A DNA stretch of 24,420 nt, taken from positions 1-24,420 of the IMG/VR virus record IMGVR_UViG_3300017912_002838; one strand, written 5' to 3'. Origin of the DNA: a virus (taxonomy: Duplodnaviria > Caudoviricetes). The position numbers were made by a program, and so were the translations under genes. The notes beneath the pieces were generated by a model. The model ran no database searches. It was not told where the DNA came from and saw only the letters and a list, made by a program, of their open reading frames with translations. Shown here one piece after another: positions 3,881 to 17,860 of this stretch. Each line of letters begins with the position of its first letter. Within the stretch, counting starts at the first letter, position 1.

Positions 3881-3923
3881 TTAATATTCTCCGTTAGTTA
3901 GTTTATGCATTATTGCAATATTG

Positions 3924-5203: not shown

Positions 5204-5224
5204 TTTTTTCTCCGTTAGTTAGTT

Positions 5225-5255
5225 AAAAAAAAACGGGCTGAATTTCAACCCGTTT
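5225..5255 (-). terminator. Terminator-like hairpin directly upstream of the DUF932 leader
   Basis: AAACGGGTTGA-AAT-TCAGCCCGTTT followed by a T-run on the minus strand. Confidence 0.7.
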
Positions 5256-5287
5256 AAAATATCTCATAATATCGCGTATTGTGCAAG

Positions 5288-5719: not shown

Positions 5720-5748
5720 TTACTTCTCCATAGTTAGTTAAAAAATAA

Positions 5749-6494: not shown

Positions 6495-6525
6495 TATTTA
6501 CTCCGTAGTTGTATGTGAATTTGTC

Positions 6526-6883: not shown

Positions 6884-7275
6884 AGCTCCGTTTCTGACCC
6901 ATCAGGTTCCTGCACATGAAAGCCTAGTTCCCAGACAAAATCTCCTTTGGACATATGTTCTTCATACAATTTTATTGCCTCACTTTGATACTTAACTCTA
7001 AGTGCGTCCATACCATCTTCAGACATAGCCTCTGCCTCTTGAGGTGTTAATGTAGTTTCGACCGATACAAATTGGTCACATTTAAAATCAAGAAATACTT
7101 TAGCTCTTGTTGGTTGACGATTCTGCAAATCTTTCAACAAAAAAGATAATCTTTCTTTATCTTCTTTTAAAAGAGTCTCAGTTCGTGCTATTGAATTTCT
7201 CAAATCATCAATAGTGTCCTGTAAAAACTCTCTTGTTTTTTGCTGATTTATGTTTTTTCTTTCCCGTAAATCCAT
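6880..7275 (-). CDS. Hypothetical protein, N-terminal coiled coil
   Basis: 131-aa ORF with AAGGAG RBS and an upstream TTGACA promoter. Confidence 0.75.
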   Translation of the reverse strand: MDLRERKNINQQKTREFLQDTIDDLRNSIARTETLLKEDKERLSFLLKDLQNRQPTRAKVFLDFKCDQFVSVETTLTPQEAEAMSEDGMDALRVKYQSEAIKLYEEHMSKGDFVWELGFHVQEPDGSETEL

Positions 7276-7304
7276 AGTTTTCTCCTTAATAGTTAGTGTA
7301 TGTG

Positions 7305-7339: not shown

Positions 7340-7579
7340 ATAATTTAATCTCCTTATATATATGGCTGAAACAAAAAAAATAAAAAAGACCCACGGCCCC
7401 AATAAGACCTTTTGCTAAATAAGAGGTAACACTAGTATTCTGATAAGTGTTACTGTGGTGTTACCTATAATCTCTATATATATCAAAAGCTTACAAGCGT
7501 GGTAACGCGGTAACACCGGTAACTGGGAGTTATGAAAAAATATTTTTTTTTTGTCAGATATATATAATGTTACTGTTAC
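7340..7579. repeat. Iteron-like GGTAACAC/GTGTTAC cluster in an AT-rich gap (putative replication origin)
   Basis: GTAAC/GTTAC-cored units at 7425, 7447, 7458, 7501, 7509, 7518, 7568, 7574 in both orientations, with TATATA and A/T tracts. Confidence 0.6.
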
Positions 7580-8210: not shown

Positions 8211-8368
8211 TAGAGTCCTAGTAACTCCCGTAAAATGCCGCTAGGTATGGGGCTATCTGTATCTATTTTACCTATTTTCAATGTTACATATCCATCATCA
8301 TCCATTGTTATGTATGATACATCGTCTGTTAGATTATTCAAAGCCTTGGTTAAATCATCCCAGGTCAT
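8210..8368 (-). CDS. Hypothetical protein (52 aa), not in ORF track
   Basis: MTWDDLTKALNNLTDDVSYITMDDDGYVTLKIGKIDTDSPIPSGILRELLGL*; AGGAG RBS. Confidence 0.7.
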   Translation of the reverse strand: MTWDDLTKALNNLTDDVSYITMDDDGYVTLKIGKIDTDSPIPSGILRELLGL

Positions 8369-8428
8369 ATTTTTCTCCTATAGTTGACAATATCCTATAT
8401 AAGCACGTATAAAAATGCAAGTCAACAC

Positions 8429-8499
8429 AAAAAAAGCCCCCCAGAACTCTGGAGGGCTTTCAACTAACTACGGGAGCAGGCCTATGATAACCTGTTCAT
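8429..8499 (-). ncRNA. Putative trans-acting anti-RBS small RNA
   Basis: Promoter TTGTAA-17-TATCTT, then 5' stem CAGG..CCUG, seed CUCCCGUAGUUAGUUG (8461-8476), and terminator AAAGCCCUCCAG-AGUU-CUGGGGGGCUUUUUUU (8429-8460). Confidence 0.6.
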
Positions 8500-8504
8500 C
8501 TACT

Positions 8505-8533
8505 AAGATAAGCGAATATATAAGATATTACAA
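8505..8533 (-). promoter_or_regulatory. Sigma70-type promoter of the putative sRNA
   Basis: TTGTAA (8528-8533), 17 bp, TATCTT (8505-8510). Confidence 0.6.
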
Positions 8534-8779
8534 GCTTTTTTTTCGTTTTTTATTATTAAAAGCGTCTGGCGTGATAAAACCCTTATTTATATCGGATTTT
8601 ATGCGCTTAATTGTCTCTTCATCGTCCATAATTTTAGAATAATCAACGTCTTTTTTCTTTTTACGGCGTGTCATACGCTTAAATTTATCCACGACGCTTT
8701 GACTAAAGTGACGGATCTGATGATCTGTGCTTGTTTTTTTAAGAAAATTATTAATGTGAAACATATCTTCTAATTTCAT
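8528..8779 (-). CDS. Hypothetical basic protein (83 aa)
   Basis: Start reassigned to MKLEDMF, whose ATG overlaps the TGA of 8776..9015. Confidence 0.6.
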   Translation of the reverse strand: MKLEDMFHINNFLKKTSTDHQIRHFSQSVVDKFKRMTRRKKKKDVDYSKIMDDEETIKRIKSDINKGFITPDAFNNKKRKKSL

Positions 8780-9018: not shown

Positions 9019-9186
9019 TTAGCTAATCTTGGGCCGTGGGTCTAGGTCATCCTTTAATTTATTATAGATCTGGGCCATCATTTTCAGCTGAGTGTTGATA
9101 GTACGGCCTCGTTCCTCTGCATCTTTCTTGATACTATTGTACACTTCACGCGGAGTGACGATAGATTTGTACTTTTCTGTGTCCAT
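9019..9186 (-). CDS. Ribbon-helix-helix (Arc/CopG-like) regulator, 55 aa, not in ORF track
   Basis: MDTEKYKSIVTPREVYNSIKKDAEERGRTINTQLKMMAQIY...: beta strand KSIVTP, helix, GRT turn, helix. Own promoter TTGATT(9239-9244)-17-TATATT(9216-9221). Confidence 0.7.
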   Translation of the reverse strand: MDTEKYKSIVTPREVYNSIKKDAEERGRTINTQLKMMAQIYNKLKDDLDPRPKIS

Positions 9187-9270: not shown

Positions 9271-9314
9271 AGGTGGGAGGAAAGAACCGAACAAATGCCG
9301 TTAGCAGACAGTTT

Positions 9315-11207
9315 TTATTGAGCAGTTCCCCAGTCGGGGCCAATTTCAACGTCACATTTGCTCGGTATCTCTAAGTCTACGGCATTTTCCATAATTTCTG
9401 CAATAGTTTTTGCTTCTTTTTCATCTTTTACGGACATAGCTATCTCGTCATGTATTTGTATAAGCGGTAATCGTCCTGTTTTATATATATCTACCATAGC
9501 TTTCTTAGTCATATCGGCTGCGGAGGCCTGTATTAATCTGTTCAGGGCCTTGTAGCTGTAAGCACGTTTTAATTTTGTCGTGGGCCCATATTCCCGGACC
9601 GCCTCGCTGTAGGGCAGGGCCTTGTTCATCTTAAAACTATCGGGTTCCCACAGATCAAAGCGGCATTTACGGCCAAGCAGCGAGCGTATAGATCCTTTTC
9701 CGCCTTGTTCGTTGAGTCTATTTTGCACGCCTGTCATCAATCCACGGACAAAAGGCACGCGGTCATTATACTGTGCGACAAGATCCTTGGCCTCATCGAG
9801 CGATATATCGAGCTGTTCGGACATTTTTTTCACGCCCATGCCGTATATGAGCCCTAAATTTATGGTTTTGGCCTGTTTTCGTGGTATTTTTGCCATCTCT
9901 GCGACCATGGTATGGAAATCCATGCTTGAATCATGCCGATAGCCGTGGACAAATTCGTCTATACCCTTGAGTGGTATGCCCCTGCTGTTGCCATATATAT
10001 AGGCATAGTGAACCAGGATTCGTGGTTCTTGCTGCGAATAATCGATAGCCGCCCATTGTTCTCCTTCTTCTGGCAGAAACAGAGAGCGAATCATGGGGCC
10101 AAGCTCAGGGTCACGGGCCGGGATCTGCTGTAAATTTGGATTATTCATAGAGATGCGCCCGGATACGGTGCCGCCGTCGTCGGAGCGTATCTGATTTATG
10201 TGGCTATGTATACGGCCATCGGACCGACAATGCTTCATTATAGTATTAATAAACGTGCCGGATGTTTTATTTAGGTTGCGTGCCTGGACAATAAGCTGCG
10301 GTAGTTCGTGTGTATGCTCGCTTAAAAACTGTTTTGTAAACGACGGGGCACCTTTGTCTGTGCGTGGATACTGTATGCTTAGCGCCTCAAACGCTTTTGC
10401 GATAGAGGCTGCTGCCCATATTTCTACGTCGTGACCTACAAGTTTTTTAATCCCACTTAATACTTCTTGCTCACGTTTGATAAGAGAAGTACGAGTACGT
10501 TCCACTTTATCCTGGTCCACGCGTACACCACGCCAGGTCATATCTATAAGGCAGGGCAGCAAGTCTAACTCTAAGTTAGCTACGTCCCATAGATCTTCTT
10601 TACCAAGCTGACCCGATAGATATCCCCATAACTCTAGGGTCAGGGAGGCATCACCCTCGGCATACGGTCCGACATACATGGCAGGCATTTTCCACAGCTC
10701 ACCTTTTGGATCTAAACCAAAGCTACGCGCGGCCTCTATAAGATTTTTCTCAGACTTCACCTTACCTATGTGGTCATAGGCTAAGGCATTCAGGCTATAA
10801 CTCATACGATTCTCGTCTAGTAGCGCCGCTATCAGCATAGTATCGATGATACGACCGTTTAGTGTAAAACCCATGCGCCGTATCCATCCTGCATCATACT
10901 GTGCGTTGTGCATGATTTTATCCGCAGGACTCTCAAATACTTTCTTCAGCCAGTTATTTACAATGCGCTCATCTAGATTACCACCGTATTTGTGACGAAT
11001 CGGTATATAGCCTGCCCAATCACTGACGGCAATAGCATAGCCAACAACCTCGCCATCGCCTGTTGGCCACCCTGGTCCGAGAGTCTTGATGTTAGGATCG
11101 CGTGTCTCTACATCAATAGCTATTTGCTTTGCGTCAAATATATTAGGAAGCTCGCTAGGTGGCAGCCATTCTGACTTTGGCGTGTCAAACGCTAACTGCA
11201 AAGACAT
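9315..11207 (-). CDS. polA: DNA polymerase family A (3'-5' exonuclease + polymerase, no 5'-3' exonuclease)
   Basis: IAIDVET (ExoI), HNAQYD (ExoII), YAEGDA (ExoIII), SGRISMNNPNLQQIP, DYSQQEPRIL (motif A), KTINLGLIYG (motif B), QIHDE (motif C). Confidence 0.97.
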   Translation of the reverse strand: MSLQLAFDTPKSEWLPPSELPNIFDAKQIAIDVETRDPNIKTLGPGWPTGDGEVVGYAIAVSDWAGYIPIRHKYGGNLDERIVNNWLKKVFESPADKIMHNAQYDAGWIRRMGFTLNGRIIDTMLIAALLDENRMSYSLNALAYDHIGKVKSEKNLIEAARSFGLDPKGELWKMPAMYVGPYAEGDASLTLELWGYLSGQLGKEDLWDVANLELDLLPCLIDMTWRGVRVDQDKVERTRTSLIKREQEVLSGIKKLVGHDVEIWAAASIAKAFEALSIQYPRTDKGAPSFTKQFLSEHTHELPQLIVQARNLNKTSGTFINTIMKHCRSDGRIHSHINQIRSDDGGTVSGRISMNNPNLQQIPARDPELGPMIRSLFLPEEGEQWAAIDYSQQEPRILVHYAYIYGNSRGIPLKGIDEFVHGYRHDSSMDFHTMVAEMAKIPRKQAKTINLGLIYGMGVKKMSEQLDISLDEAKDLVAQYNDRVPFVRGLMTGVQNRLNEQGGKGSIRSLLGRKCRFDLWEPDSFKMNKALPYSEAVREYGPTTKLKRAYSYKALNRLIQASAADMTKKAMVDIYKTGRLPLIQIHDEIAMSVKDEKEAKTIAEIMENAVDLEIPSKCDVEIGPDWGTAQ

Positions 11208-13355: not shown

Positions 13356-14899
13356 TAAAATACCTCCTTCTTATCATTAATACCAAAATCAGGCGCAGAT
13401 ACTGTTACTTCCTTGTTTACAAAGGCCGGTATCTTCCAAACACGCACAGGACGCCCCTTGATCTTTATAAGCTTACTCTCACCGCCTCTGTCACGTAATC
13501 GTTGCGCCATCTTATATGTCTTATACTCAAAGAAGCGATGTTTCTTGAGATGGTTTTCAAAGTCTTTAAGACGAAAGTACGTTACGTTTTCTTCTTCATC
13601 TGTCCAAGGACGCTTCAATAGTATCTCTTCTTTATCTTGTGCCTGCTGCAAATGCGAACAAAACTCTTCAAGATGGTCATAAAACTGACCTGTGATGCTT
13701 GCATCTTCAGGCACCTCTATAATAGCACTCTCGTTTTCACGCATTTCACGCAGTAAACTGGATATGCGTGTCTCCCATATATTACGATTTACGGACTGTG
13801 GCATGAAGTTTAATTGTTCCATACAGGCCTTTTGAAAGGTAGTTTGGTTTTGTAATGCGTCTGTATCCAATTCTAAGGGCTCACTATTGACGTCTACGAA
13901 CCATACGGGTGGTACAGAATTATATTTACGCAAGTTGGCTATCATGGCCCCTTGTATGGCCGCTCCTATGCCATGGCGTCGTGTAAGACATAGAGTCTTG
14001 TTGCAATGCGCGTTGATAGGTGAGTCATTACATTTATAGGCATAATCTTTTTTCTGTAGCTGTTTTGCCACAATATTAACTTCGCCAAGCGGCAGAGGTG
14101 GCTCAAGATAGTTTGTGTTGTACACCTGTATCTCTGTTTCCCATGTGTCCGGGTATGCTTTGCGTAGATACACGCCAAGATTAAATAATCCATTGTTGCG
14201 CCCACCCTCTGATATCTTTTTTCGTGCTAATATTTGTAAGCACGGTGGGCCGTCAACCAATATGTCTTCTTTAATATTCTCGCCAATGCGTAGCTTGGAT
14301 AGTTGCTCAGGTGTCTGTTTATATTTTTCATACAGTTCTATAAACTCATCAAGCGTGGCGCCTGTGCCGTCGTCCTTGATGGCATATCGTAGACCACTCT
14401 CGGCATCAAAGTAAGGCAGATTAAGAAAGTTACCTACATCATCACGGTCAAGGTTTAGTTTTATCTGCTTAGGAAAGACCTCGCTACCGCCATATCCAAG
14501 TGCGGCCGATATTTGCTGTAATGTTTTCTGCATATCCTCAGCGTCAATCCACTCTGTGGAGAACAAGAAACAATGCGCTCCACCTGACTTAGATCGACAG
14601 ATCACCAAAGGCAGTTTTAGTTTTCGTATCTTTTTCACTAATACTTTATGGTCCAGGGGATATTGATCCACATCAATACATCCCCAGACACATTTGTTTT
14701 CTTCGTTTATGGGTATGATACCTACTGCCCGGCCCTTACCAGACAGGTGACCCTCCCATAGCTCTGTGGACCGTGGCTCGCGAATAATCGCGGCACGGCC
14801 CGTGCTCTTACCATTTAATTGCTTCTTGTCAATCTTAAACGTGCCATACGCCAACCGCAGGCCGTCAAAGATAGCGGCAAATTTTTCAGTTGTAGACAT
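13355..14899 (-). CDS. Archaeo-eukaryotic-type primase (prim-pol) with PriCT-like domain
   Basis: WGCIDVD (DxD), RSKSGGAH, GNFLNLPY, GPPCL, EGGRNNGLFNLG, Cys cluster YKC...HC...C. Confidence 0.82.
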   Translation of the reverse strand: MSTTEKFAAIFDGLRLAYGTFKIDKKQLNGKSTGRAAIIREPRSTELWEGHLSGKGRAVGIIPINEENKCVWGCIDVDQYPLDHKVLVKKIRKLKLPLVICRSKSGGAHCFLFSTEWIDAEDMQKTLQQISAALGYGGSEVFPKQIKLNLDRDDVGNFLNLPYFDAESGLRYAIKDDGTGATLDEFIELYEKYKQTPEQLSKLRIGENIKEDILVDGPPCLQILARKKISEGGRNNGLFNLGVYLRKAYPDTWETEIQVYNTNYLEPPLPLGEVNIVAKQLQKKDYAYKCNDSPINAHCNKTLCLTRRHGIGAAIQGAMIANLRKYNSVPPVWFVDVNSEPLELDTDALQNQTTFQKACMEQLNFMPQSVNRNIWETRISSLLREMRENESAIIEVPEDASITGQFYDHLEEFCSHLQQAQDKEEILLKRPWTDEEENVTYFRLKDFENHLKKHRFFEYKTYKMAQRLRDRGGESKLIKIKGRPVRVWKIPAFVNKEVTVSAPDFGINDKKEVF

Positions 14900-14905
14900 T
14901 GATAG

Positions 14906-15715
14906 TTAGAATACTTTTTTGTCTTTAGAAGTATCTTCAGCTACAGGTTCCGGATTACCCTCATTGTCAGCTTGATGCTTAACAGGCACTTCACCGGCTT
15001 TGATGCTTTGAGCAAAAGCTTTTGCCCGATTATAAACGCTCTCATCAGTAACCATACTGTCCTTTGCCATCTCCCAACCGTGCCAACTACCTTTGTCGTT
15101 TTTCTCTGGGACGGTGGTGAGTTTATAAATATGGCTAAAACGTGGTGGACTAAAGGCGCCATTAGCACTAGGCAAGACAATGGATTTTATTAACGTATTC
15201 CATTTCTTCGACTTTTTACGCTGCGTAGATTTCATTGTAATCAAGGCAGGCTCAGCAGCACCATCGTCTTTCAACAACAATACAAAATGCTGATGCGTTT
15301 CTTCAATGTAATCTCCGTCGGCACCCACAACCTTGTCCTGATTAGTGTTTTCGTCTCTCTGTGTTTCAGGTCTTTTTTCGTTAGGCAGGTATATAGCAAC
15401 CGGTGCTCCTGTGCCATTGCCACGTGGTGCCCATTGAATAAACCGAACTTGGTAAGAACACGGTATAACTCTAATACCGTCTTTACCTTTAAAGATCTCT
15501 TTACTGACCGTATTATAAATGTCACCTTTTTTGGCATTATCGTTTTCATTCATAATATCATCGTCTTGACCAGATATTATCTTGAGAAACGGTGTAGCCA
15601 GATCTTCTTGACCAACATTTTCGTTACCCATATCTTGGTCTTGTTCAAACATAGAACTTAAAGCGACCATATTTGCAGATTTAGGGTCTGCTACCTCTTT
15701 TTTTGCTTCAGCCAT
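14906..15715 (-). CDS. Putative single-stranded DNA-binding protein
   Basis: DLATPFLKI, ITMKSTQ.KKSKKWN, NDKGSWHGW, acidic tail ending in F; located in the replication operon. Confidence 0.6.
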   Translation of the reverse strand: MAEAKKEVADPKSANMVALSSMFEQDQDMGNENVGQEDLATPFLKIISGQDDDIMNENDNAKKGDIYNTVSKEIFKGKDGIRVIPCSYQVRFIQWAPRGNGTGAPVAIYLPNEKRPETQRDENTNQDKVVGADGDYIEETHQHFVLLLKDDGAAEPALITMKSTQRKKSKKWNTLIKSIVLPSANGAFSPPRFSHIYKLTTVPEKNDKGSWHGWEMAKDSMVTDESVYNRAKAFAQSIKAGEVPVKHQADNEGNPEPVAEDTSKDKKVF

Positions 15716-16411: not shown

Positions 16412-17860
16412 ATGAAAAAATATAAATTTAAAACAAAACCCTTTAAACACCAGAAGAATGCTCTGCGTGATTCGTGGGACAAGGAGTATTATGCCCTGTT
16501 TATGGAGATGGGTACAGGAAAATCTAAGGTTGCCATAGATACTATGGGTATTTTATATACAGAAGGTAAGATCAACGCTGCTCTAGTTATATCACCAAAA
16601 GGTGTTTACGATAACTGGGTACAAGGCGAGATACCTACACACTTATCTGACAAGATAAATACTAACATGGTGCGATGGCGGCCGTCCTTGGCACAATCTT
16701 TTCAGAAAGCTATGCGCACTCTAGTGTATAATAAATTTAAAGGTCTTAAAATATTTGTGATGAACACAGAGGCTTTGTCTACACCACGTGGTGCCTCTGC
16801 TGCACAAACATTTCTACAAGAAAATAAAAATAACATTGTTATTGTGGATGAAAGCACGACTATAAAAAACAGGTCTGCTAATCGCACACAAAATATTATG
16901 TCTTTAAAACAACTATCCAGGTACAGACGTATACTGACAGGTTCGCCTGTGACACGGAGTCCCTTGGATTTATTTAGTCAATGTATGTTTTTATCCTCTT
17001 ACGCCTTAAACTTTAAAACATTTTATGCTTTTCAAGCCAGATATGGAATCTTGCAGAAAAGAGTCATGGGCCCACGATCTTTTAACGAGGTAGTAGGCTA
17101 CAGGCGTTTAGATGAACTCAACATTAAATTACAAAGATTTAGTAACAGAGTCTTAAAAGAAGAGTGTCTTGATTTGCCGGACAAGATGTACACCACACGT
17201 TTGGTGCCGTTGTCTGCGGATCAAAAGAAAGCGTATGATGAGATGAAACAGCTTGCTTTGACCAGGTTAGATAATGGTGAGTTAAGCACTACACAAAGCG
17301 TTCTTACACAAATCATGCGGTTACAACAGATATGCTGTGGTCATATTCAGGATGACGAGGGCAACACAGTGAGTTTCACAAACGGACGCGTTAACGAATT
17401 GCTAGATGTTTGTGAAGAAGTACAGGGAAAAGCTATCATTTGGGCGACATTTACCTATGACATTCAACAGATAGCGAAGGCCCTGCGCGACCGTTTTGGG
17501 CCCGATTCGGTCGCAACCTACTATGGTGAAACCCCACAAGAAGAGCGTCAGGATATTGTAAAACGATTCCAAGATCCTGAACATCCCCTGCGCTTCTTTG
17601 TGGGGCAGCCTAAAACAGGTGGCTATGGTATTACACTTACAGCGGCTAACACAGTTATATATTACAGTAACAGTTATGACCTTGAGATTAGACTGCAATC
17701 AGAAGATAGAGCGCACCGTATTGGTCAGAAAAATAAGGTCACGTATGTAGATATAATATCACCAGGAACGACTGACGAGAAGATACGAGAGGCTTTAAAA
17801 AGCAAGGTAAACCTAGCGCAGCAAGTATTAGGAGAGGACGCTAAGTCTTGGTTTTCTTAG
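16412..17860 (+). CDS. SNF2-like superfamily 2 helicase
   Basis: MEMGTGKSK, IVDEST, LTGSP, GGYGITLTAA, QSEDRAHRIGQ. Confidence 0.92.
   Translation: MKKYKFKTKPFKHQKNALRDSWDKEYYALFMEMGTGKSKVAIDTMGILYTEGKINAALVISPKGVYDNWVQGEIPTHLSDKINTNMVRWRPSLAQSFQKAMRTLVYNKFKGLKIFVMNTEALSTPRGASAAQTFLQENKNNIVIVDESTTIKNRSANRTQNIMSLKQLSRYRRILTGSPVTRSPLDLFSQCMFLSSYALNFKTFYAFQARYGILQKRVMGPRSFNEVVGYRRLDELNIKLQRFSNRVLKEECLDLPDKMYTTRLVPLSADQKKAYDEMKQLALTRLDNGELSTTQSVLTQIMRLQQICCGHIQDDEGNTVSFTNGRVNELLDVCEEVQGKAIIWATFTYDIQQIAKALRDRFGPDSVATYYGETPQEERQDIVKRFQDPEHPLRFFVGQPKTGGYGITLTAANTVIYYSNSYDLEIRLQSEDRAHRIGQKNKVTYVDIISPGTTDEKIREALKSKVNLAQQVLGEDAKSWFS

Follow-up and report, generated by a model that had tools for sequence, protein, structure and literature searches.

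Phages without an RNA polymerase of their own still need to switch off or limit their early genes, and the multi-gene solutions to early-gene shut-off known to us are proteins such as T4 RegB. A second T4 protein, RegA, is a translational repressor. In bacteria, the AbcR1/2 and the CcsR or cuckoo RNAs combine a C-rich single-stranded seed with a terminator and target several ribosome-binding sites (RBSs), the cuckoo RNAs by means of repeated CCUCCUCCC hairpin loops.

RegB itself is described as an endoribonuclease that cuts early mRNAs at GGAG within the Shine-Dalgarno (SD) sequence (PMC9409239). Among phage-encoded RNAs, the 77-nt c4 antisense RNA of P1 and P7 is reviewed as acting in trans on phage mRNA around the RBS via exposed stretches, controlling one antirepressor mRNA in temperate phages with a specificity that differs between related phages, while lambda PreS and VP882 VpdS are presented as trans-acting small RNAs (sRNAs) of lytic growth that address host mRNAs or compete for Hfq (PMC12197685). 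The SAS/ESAS elements of cluster K mycobacteriophages consist of an asymmetric SD-containing repeat located before non-structural genes, with long upstream gaps and with inverted repeats further upstream, and four genomes hold a single copy in the opposite orientation to which no gene start is attached; the pages of this 2011 description that deal with the repeats do not suggest that the inverted copy gives rise to an antisense RNA, and they leave open whether the ligand is an RNA or a protein (PMC3203893). The phage locus analysed here probably encodes a trans-acting sRNA that pairs with the leaders of six accessory cassettes over their SD sequences and jointly lowers the output of these genes, which are probably early ones.

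Setting and anatomy of the predicted RNA

The window, that is, the whole stretch of 24.4 kb of viral DNA that was analysed, encodes a family A DNA polymerase (pol), UvrD and SNF2 helicases, an AEP primase and a small terminase (terS). As its pol shares 49-55% identity with the polymerases of DSL-LC04, 023Pt_psg01, HTVC023P and HTVC027P, the window is assigned by sequence to an uncultured HTVC023P-related marine phage; no host is assigned because the bins containing the 39 GTDB loci carry the labels of many unrelated taxa. The interval between pol (11207-9315) and terS (2302) is filled with minus-strand accessory cassettes separated by terminators. Most cassette genes are without an assigned function, the named ones being DUF932, DUF7227 and phrog_21575, and none of 12 cassette-region proteins was named by NCBIfam above its cut-off. 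One stretch without ORFs (7400-7545) carries short GTTAC/GTAAC repeats, both direct and inverted, and is possibly a replication origin or a protein-binding array.

The sRNA unit, as read from the sequence, extends on the minus strand from 8533 to 8429. It starts with a sigma70-like promoter, TTGTAA-17-TATCTT (8505..8533, with TTGTAA at 8533-8528 and TATCTT at 8510-8505), whose spacing places the 5' end of a predicted 71-nt non-coding RNA (about 8499-8429). This RNA would be composed of a 5' hairpin (8477..8494), deduced from the fold and from the subclade alignment, a single-stranded seed CUCCCGUAGUUAGUUG (8461..8476), antisense to leader and SD as judged from pairing and covariation, and an intrinsic terminator (8429..8460) with 13 pairs (8461-8432) followed by U7, in which the G-U pairs are possible on the minus strand only. 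The sole ORF within it is MNRLS; its single CUCCC sits in the linker and the loop of the 5' hairpin is AUCAUA. The promoter, the 5' stem-loop, the exposed seed, the terminator and the five-codon ORF had been listed in a first-pass annotation of the window and are present as described there. The predicted fold has an energy of -29.8 kcal/mol (z -4.05) that none of 200 shuffles equals, most of the stability coming from the terminator, and the accessibility calculation leaves seed bases 8473-8462 unpaired.

A consensus promoter scanner did not list the sRNA promoter, and promoter-like sites occur across the region at chance frequency (18 vs 19.2 expected), so that the promoter call rests on conservation: all 15 close relatives in the alignment keep TTGTAA unchanged. 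Over these 15 relatives 92% of the helix cells are paired, with two-sided changes at three pairs and with frequent G-U pairs, which fix the minus strand as that of the RNA. The terminator helix is paired in 100% of cells over 12 pairs, five of which vary one-sidedly (G-U) and one two-sidedly, and the 5' hairpin shows two-sided changes at 2 of 7 pairs with 79% of cells paired. No Rfam family reached its gathering score between 2300 and 9400 of the window, where 15 weak, terminator-driven matches all stayed far below it, or in 13 related loci. The unit has the general features of trans-acting anti-RBS RNAs: a promoter (by conservation only), a short non-coding body, an intrinsic terminator and a conserved seed that is accessible and can pair with several RBSs at a distance.

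Two further elements lie near the unit. An inverted pair, GTTGAC...GTCAAC, spans 8384-8422, and its plus-strand TTGACA (8384-8389) faces the sRNA gene, from where an antisense transcript across the sRNA is possible. An anti-SD stretch, TTTCCTCCC (9276-9290, minus strand), immediately precedes the pol terminator (9270-9252), the first after pol; CCTCC or CTCCC is found ahead of the first post-pol terminator in 28 of 53 loci, and the stretch could be a second, 3'-UTR-derived anti-SD RNA.

Predicted target leaders and their covariation with the seed

The six leaders that the first-pass annotation had named as targets were all found on the minus strand, upstream of the 272-aa ORF 3880 (3889..3903), the DUF932 gene 5203 (5210..5224), the 143-aa ORF 5719 (5726..5739), the DUF7227 gene 6494 (6501..6511), the 131-aa ORF 7275 (7282..7297) and the 52-aa ORF 8368 (8375..8386). 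They share the form AACTA-N1-4-GGAG. To call the seed complement essentially their consensus was a slight overstatement: AACTA and GGAG are common, with a spacer of 1, 1, 2, 2, 2 and 4 nt. The motif occurs only once on the plus strand of the window, in agreement with the earlier claim, and a search of the 24.4 kb with the 15-mer, allowing up to three mismatches, returned three matches (8462-8476 on the plus strand, 3889-3903 and 5210-5224 on the minus strand) for a chance mean of 0.77.

Pairing energies, corrected for accessibility by including the cost of opening the RNA, amount to -15.0 (3880), -14.4 (5203), -16.4 (5719), -12.2 (6494), -14.5 (7275) and, for the weakest leader, -10.9 kcal/mol (8368). 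All six were expected at the top when 28 gene starts were ranked; ranks 1-5 did go to 5719, 3880, 7275, 5203 and 6494, but the leader of 8368 came eighth, outranked by two non-cassette starts, 22496 and 11207 (pol). The mean over the six leaders, -13.9, was attained by 0 of 300 shuffled and 0 of 300 randomised versions in which the 12 nt beyond CUCC were altered. Partial seed matches are also present on the minus strand at 8226-8236 (TTTACGGGAG, near the end of ORF 8368) and at 7260-7270 (TTTACGGGAA, directly past the 7275 start codon). A terminator-like hairpin with a U run (5231-5255, minus strand) separates the leader of the DUF932 gene from a putative promoter; because it precedes this leader, the gene may depend on read-through or attenuation.

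Related loci were collected with pol-anchored and DUF932-anchored scans plus two pattern scans, yielding 236 loci with 122 distinct elements, of which five pattern matches (L189, L222, L243, L259 and L279) were discarded before counting as chance matches with no fitting promoter context. At loci with several promoter-terminator units, the anti-SD-bearing one was chosen, and the units of L041, L042, L052 and L009 were delimited by hand. The invariance of seed columns, circular in elements selected by pattern, was excluded from the evidence. In the unbiased pol set of 53 informative loci, each extending at least 1.5 kb downstream of pol, a hand tally places the unit just downstream of pol in 40, with a UCC(C)GUAG seed in 26 promoter-terminator units and a variant seed in 14; eight loci have nothing but a C-rich unit whose status is uncertain, and five (L005, L028, L056, L066 and L072), some of them possibly too short, have none. 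HTVC027P, 023Pt_psg01 and the SAR11-bin relatives yielded no comparable unit.

Relatives with the leaders also carry the inverted copy, in a like promoter-seed-terminator setting; its absence had been named in the first-pass annotation as an argument against an sRNA. The seed remains exposed on a scaffold that differs between relatives: it lies in the linker in the window and in L019, in a hairpin loop in L023 and L074, and at the 5' end in L015, a 48-nt RNA without 5' hairpin. In one clade the seed has U in place of C. Two relatives are cultured: DSL-LC04 (L160) has four copies of CATAC[AT]GGA oriented as in leaders and a single inverted one directly ahead of a terminator (17236-17244), and HTVC023P (L161) contains AACTAACAA in four leaders, once inverted and once elsewhere, the inverted copy (10862-10871) being situated in a 3' UTR before a terminator and folded into a stem. 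In L007 the first cassette after the sRNA is a long ORF (about 14320-15680) with repeated helix-turn-helix-like segments. On this comparison the unit is a candidate for an uncatalogued, conserved small-RNA gene, and the comparative support for leader pairing is strong.

Covariation of seed and leader, the principal prediction for related phages, holds across lineages. Distinct leaders of phages with two-C seeds read ACTACGGAG in 49 cases and ACTACGGGAG in none, and with three-C seeds outside the window's subclade (non-W-type) 51 read ACTACGGGAG and one ACTACGGAG (Fisher counts, relatedness uncorrected); orthologues of the DUF7227 gene switch leader with the seed type. The whole motif is switched in six separate pol lineages, in which the seed mirrors the phage's own leaders over 9-13 nt: L004 (seed UUCCCGUAAU, leader TATTACGGGAG), L041 (CUCCGUAAUAA, TTATTACGGAG), L073 (CUCCAUGUA, TACATGGAG), L060 (UCUCCAUUGUUAA, TTAACAATGGAGA), L052 (CACCUCAUAAAAA, TTTTTATGAGGTG) and L359 (AGACUCCUU, AAGGAGTCT). 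The pol tree behind these lineages is a quick version with many inner branches open, so the six are not put forward as a formal count of independent switches.

In a cognate test each RNA was paired with the leaders of every locus, the leaders being picked solely by position and SD and relatedness being handled by thinning only; five of the 31 loci offered fewer than three leaders and were left out, so that the test covered 26. The centred diagonal was -2.26 (0 of 100,000 permutations), and the window RNA ranked first of 26 on the window's own leaders. With one locus per lineage (14 loci) the diagonal became -3.48 kcal/mol (0 of 200,000 permutations), and starts upstream of pol (replication genes), used as a control in 10 of these loci, gave -0.04 (90,398 of 200,000). 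Restriction to the 11 units from a blind promoter-plus-terminator scan gave -3.07 (0 of 200,000). Seed-leader covariation is confined to the cassette genes. By raw energy some RNAs rank poorly on their own leaders (L003 and L194, 17 of 26; L074, 23 of 26), and the window's subclade matches less tightly, having a three-C seed although, of 45 leaders, 22 have a spacer of 1 nt and 13 one of 2 nt. Pairing in trans close to the RBS through exposed stretches is predicted, and the predicted partners covary.

The covariation reaches cassettes up to 7 kb away, behind terminators of their own, which bears on whether the unit could act in cis only, with upstream read-through pairing the anti-leader with the adjacent 8368 leader or with the unit being the terminator or 3' UTR of a ribbon-helix-helix (RHH) operon. 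The unit does lie 59 nt upstream of the first cassette start, and in DSL-LC04 and HTVC023P the anti-copy is within a 3' UTR. However, the adjacent leader is the weakest match of the six and the promoter is kept at a fixed distance, so that we regard action in cis alone as highly improbable.

The relatives likewise bear on the opposite strand, where, as the first-pass annotation had noted, the motif might simply be the RBS of a translated ORF at 8484. It might also belong to a leader peptide there or be an inverted cassette header, with no function for a minus-strand RNA. Read in this direction, the DNA gives hairpin-TTT-leader-GGGAG-7 nt-ATG, like the 5203 header, downstream of the TTGACA at 8384-8389, and all 21 W-type elements keep the ATG at SD distance. 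The 52-aa ORF (8484..8642, plus strand) is nevertheless judged non-conserved as a gene: its frame varies between 5 and 55 aa in 21 close relatives and is broken by one-base indels, its only protein homologue is itself, and a start at SD distance is lacking from 42 of the 49 other three-C elements. Of these 49, moreover, 44 have a U opposite the last SD G in place of the C that a plus-strand SD would require; the plus strand would then read GGGAA, and pairing of the RNA is kept via G-U. Variants in L006, L016 and L050 retain RNA pairing in the same way. The U tract and G-U pairs also belong to the minus strand. The frame variation, the one-base indels, the want of a homologue and the starts missing in relatives speak against a plus-strand gene at 8484, and the plus-strand reading as a whole is very unlikely; an inverted cassette header, itself plausible, may be the origin of the RNA.

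Other parts of the RNA may contact targets as well. The loop and first closing base of the 5' hairpin, UCAUAG, do not vary in the subclade (15 of 15 aligned close relatives) and could pair with a CUAUGA start context. CTATG is found in 19 of 45 leaders of the subclade vs 10 of 138 elsewhere (Fisher count, relatedness uncorrected) and, in the window, in one of the six targets (7275); that UCAUAG may pair with start codons is a lead. The terminator loop of the two-C clade reads UUGCCC(CC), and the matching GGGCAA/GGGGGCA is present there in 13 of 17 DUF7227 leaders, against 0 of 23 in other loci, and in 12 of 31 leaders of an RHH-like gene, against 0 of 35 (counts from this one clade, uncorrected for relatedness). 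This second seed would reach two further leaders, those of the DUF7227 and the RHH-like genes.

Several additional loops and sites were observed. Second conserved C-rich loops are found in the 5' hairpin of L008, L065, L109 and their relatives (GCCCCCAAG) and in the terminator of L166 and L217 (CCTCC), and GGGGGC is present in a few DUF7227-like leaders. In L131 the 5'-hairpin CAUGGUGAAC is a 10-nt complement of GTTCACCATG at a target start codon (leader +1566), beside a 10-nt seed match.

That many relatives possess a second C-rich loop, for which a partner was found in one clade only, would suit an RNA directed mainly at G-rich host SDs. The leader could likewise be a protein or nuclease site (RegA/RegB- or CsrA-like) or a translation enhancer to which the RNA sets access, a view to which the cleavage by T4 RegB of GGAG in early-mRNA SDs lends some colour (PMC9409239). 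A decoy, however, would copy the motif in sense and not in antisense, and the lineage-specific covariation points to the phage's own leaders; we consider this pair of readings most improbable.

Shared promoter box, timing and proposed mode of action

A TC[CGT]YATA box, a motif chosen after inspection, is present in 105 of 113 sRNA promoters, upstream of 198 of 263 leaders and in 166 of 6014 background windows. It often occurs as an inverted pair, and a copy lies inside the sRNA promoter of the window (8505..8533, minus strand). As the box is common to both, the RNA belongs to the promoter class of its targets and is therefore probably co-expressed with them rather than late. A damper made together with its targets is thus favoured over an off-switch with a timing of its own. 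The related string ATATCYYATA is seen three times in the window (8519-8528, 8390-8399 and 5259-5268), each time in a cassette or sRNA promoter region, and the relatives show inverted TATG[CG]GAT / ATC[GC]CATA pairs resembling ESAS repeats.

Just upstream of the sRNA, a gene at 9019..9186 (minus strand) encodes a 55-aa RHH-like protein with a 60%-identical homologue carrying PF07878 (RHH_5). The gene was matched in 226 loci, and the RHH lead comes from 11% of the cluster members in the atlas. The protein is a candidate regulator that might bind the shared promoter box, a link that we infer. In the two-C clade, complementarity between the RHH-gene leader and the terminator loop of the sRNA suggests a feedback link.

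The mechanism that we propose builds on the established anatomy, complementarity, position downstream of pol, cassette-confined covariation and shared promoter box. Host sigma70 RNA polymerase would transcribe the sRNA and the cassettes together from the start of infection; the stable, terminator-capped RNA would build up, while the cassette mRNAs, of the same promoter class, would be short-lived. The seed would pair over the AACUA-N1-4-GGAG leader and the SD and block 30S binding, forming a delay or damping circuit in which a pulse of early protein is followed by repression or a limited level is held, probably alongside transcriptional control by the neighbouring RHH protein. Unequal pairing strengths (-10.9 to -16.4 kcal/mol) would grade the response, and a newly acquired cassette would join the regulon by carrying the leader. 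That the RNA is made appears highly likely, that it pairs in trans with these leaders very likely, and that it represses translation quite likely; that it acts mainly as a timer or damper of the phage's own early genes is the interpretation towards which we lean.

The labels 'early' and 'anti-host' for the cassettes are themselves tentative. The cassettes are called early because of their host-type promoters and of the analogy with unrelated cassettes of HTVC027P, for which gp35, gp36 and gp38 are classed as Early and pol as Middle in the timing data of PMC12753301. This timing serves as an analogy only, since the window cassettes have no homologue in HTVC027P, whose early genes lie on the other side of terS.

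The same RNA and the same pairing could serve chiefly for the immunity conferred by a phage that is resident or arrived first, silencing the early cassettes of incoming relatives or maintaining a quiescent carrier state, in which case the seed switches would mark immunity groups. Seeds are common within and different between lineages, three-C phages show strong cross-pairing of seeds with each other's leaders, and c4 is reported to set P1/P7 heteroimmunity by pairing near the RBS (PMC12197685). Against this, the cultured relatives are described as lytic (PMC12753301), no integrase or antirepressor is present among the 26 proteins scanned in the window, which is only part of the genome, and the promoter box is common to the sRNA and its targets. 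Immunity as the main task is therefore unlikely, and the damping of co-expressed cassettes is the reading retained below.

Comparison with known regulatory systems

As proposed here, the system resembles T4 RegB and RegA in the coordinated post-transcriptional shut-down of many early mRNAs at the SD. Those two are protein-based, however, and nothing RegB-like is found among the window proteins scanned. The comparison with AbcR/CcsR-type RNAs made in the first-pass annotation is borne out as a functional likeness only, namely a C-rich unpaired seed with a terminator and, in some relatives, a second C-rich loop; membership of these families is not, given that neither the window nor 13 relatives gave an Rfam match. 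Unlike cuckoo RNAs, the window RNA has no repeated CCUCCUCCC loops, and unlike AbcR/CcsR its predicted targets are the phage's own genes and its seed extends 5-11 nt beyond the SD. With PreS and VpdS it shares a phage origin and a predicted trans action; it differs in addressing a leader common to the phage's own genes and not host mRNAs or Hfq competition.

The SAS arrangement is matched by an SD-containing repeat before non-structural genes, one inverted copy and upstream inverted repeats, a likeness of arrangement only: the 13-bp SAS consensus GGGATAGGAGCCC is not matched by the AACTA-N1-4-GGAG leaders, and the SAS hosts are actinobacterial. A literature search, mainly of openly accessible papers, found no description of this sRNA or of an antisense reading of SAS, and the accessible text of PMC9599517 contains neither 'small RNA' nor 'noncoding'. 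The SAS question, namely what binds the repeats and why one copy is inverted, becomes directly testable, and a test system may exist in the cultured DSL-LC04, which has the motif in four leaders and a single inverted copy ahead of a terminator.

For a wider proposal we see the chances as evenly balanced: that widespread marine phages run an RNA regulon in which the leader is a 'zip code' plugging acquired early cassettes into a translational timer, that extra loops (anti-start codon, anti-GGGCAA) reach further targets including the phage's own transcription regulator, and that the same logic explains mycobacteriophage SAS and its inverted copy. If true, the RNA regulon would be a general, overlooked layer of phage gene control, and the leader would provide a sequence rule for recognising regulated accessory genes in uncultured phages.

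The closest analogue remains c4, which is likewise phage-encoded, of similar size and of lineage-differing specificity, and with which the predicted trans action at RBSs of the phage's own mRNAs is shared. Unlike c4, the RNA addresses six or more unrelated cassettes with a co-evolving leader, has its own promoter and terminator and is found in apparently lytic relatives; it gives no Rfam match at gathering score in the stretch and the 13 loci searched, and its targets are DUF932, DUF7227, phrog_21575 and unassigned ORFs, with no antirepressor matched. By analogy, the sRNA would work like c4 widened to a regulon, yet it is not a member of the c4 family.
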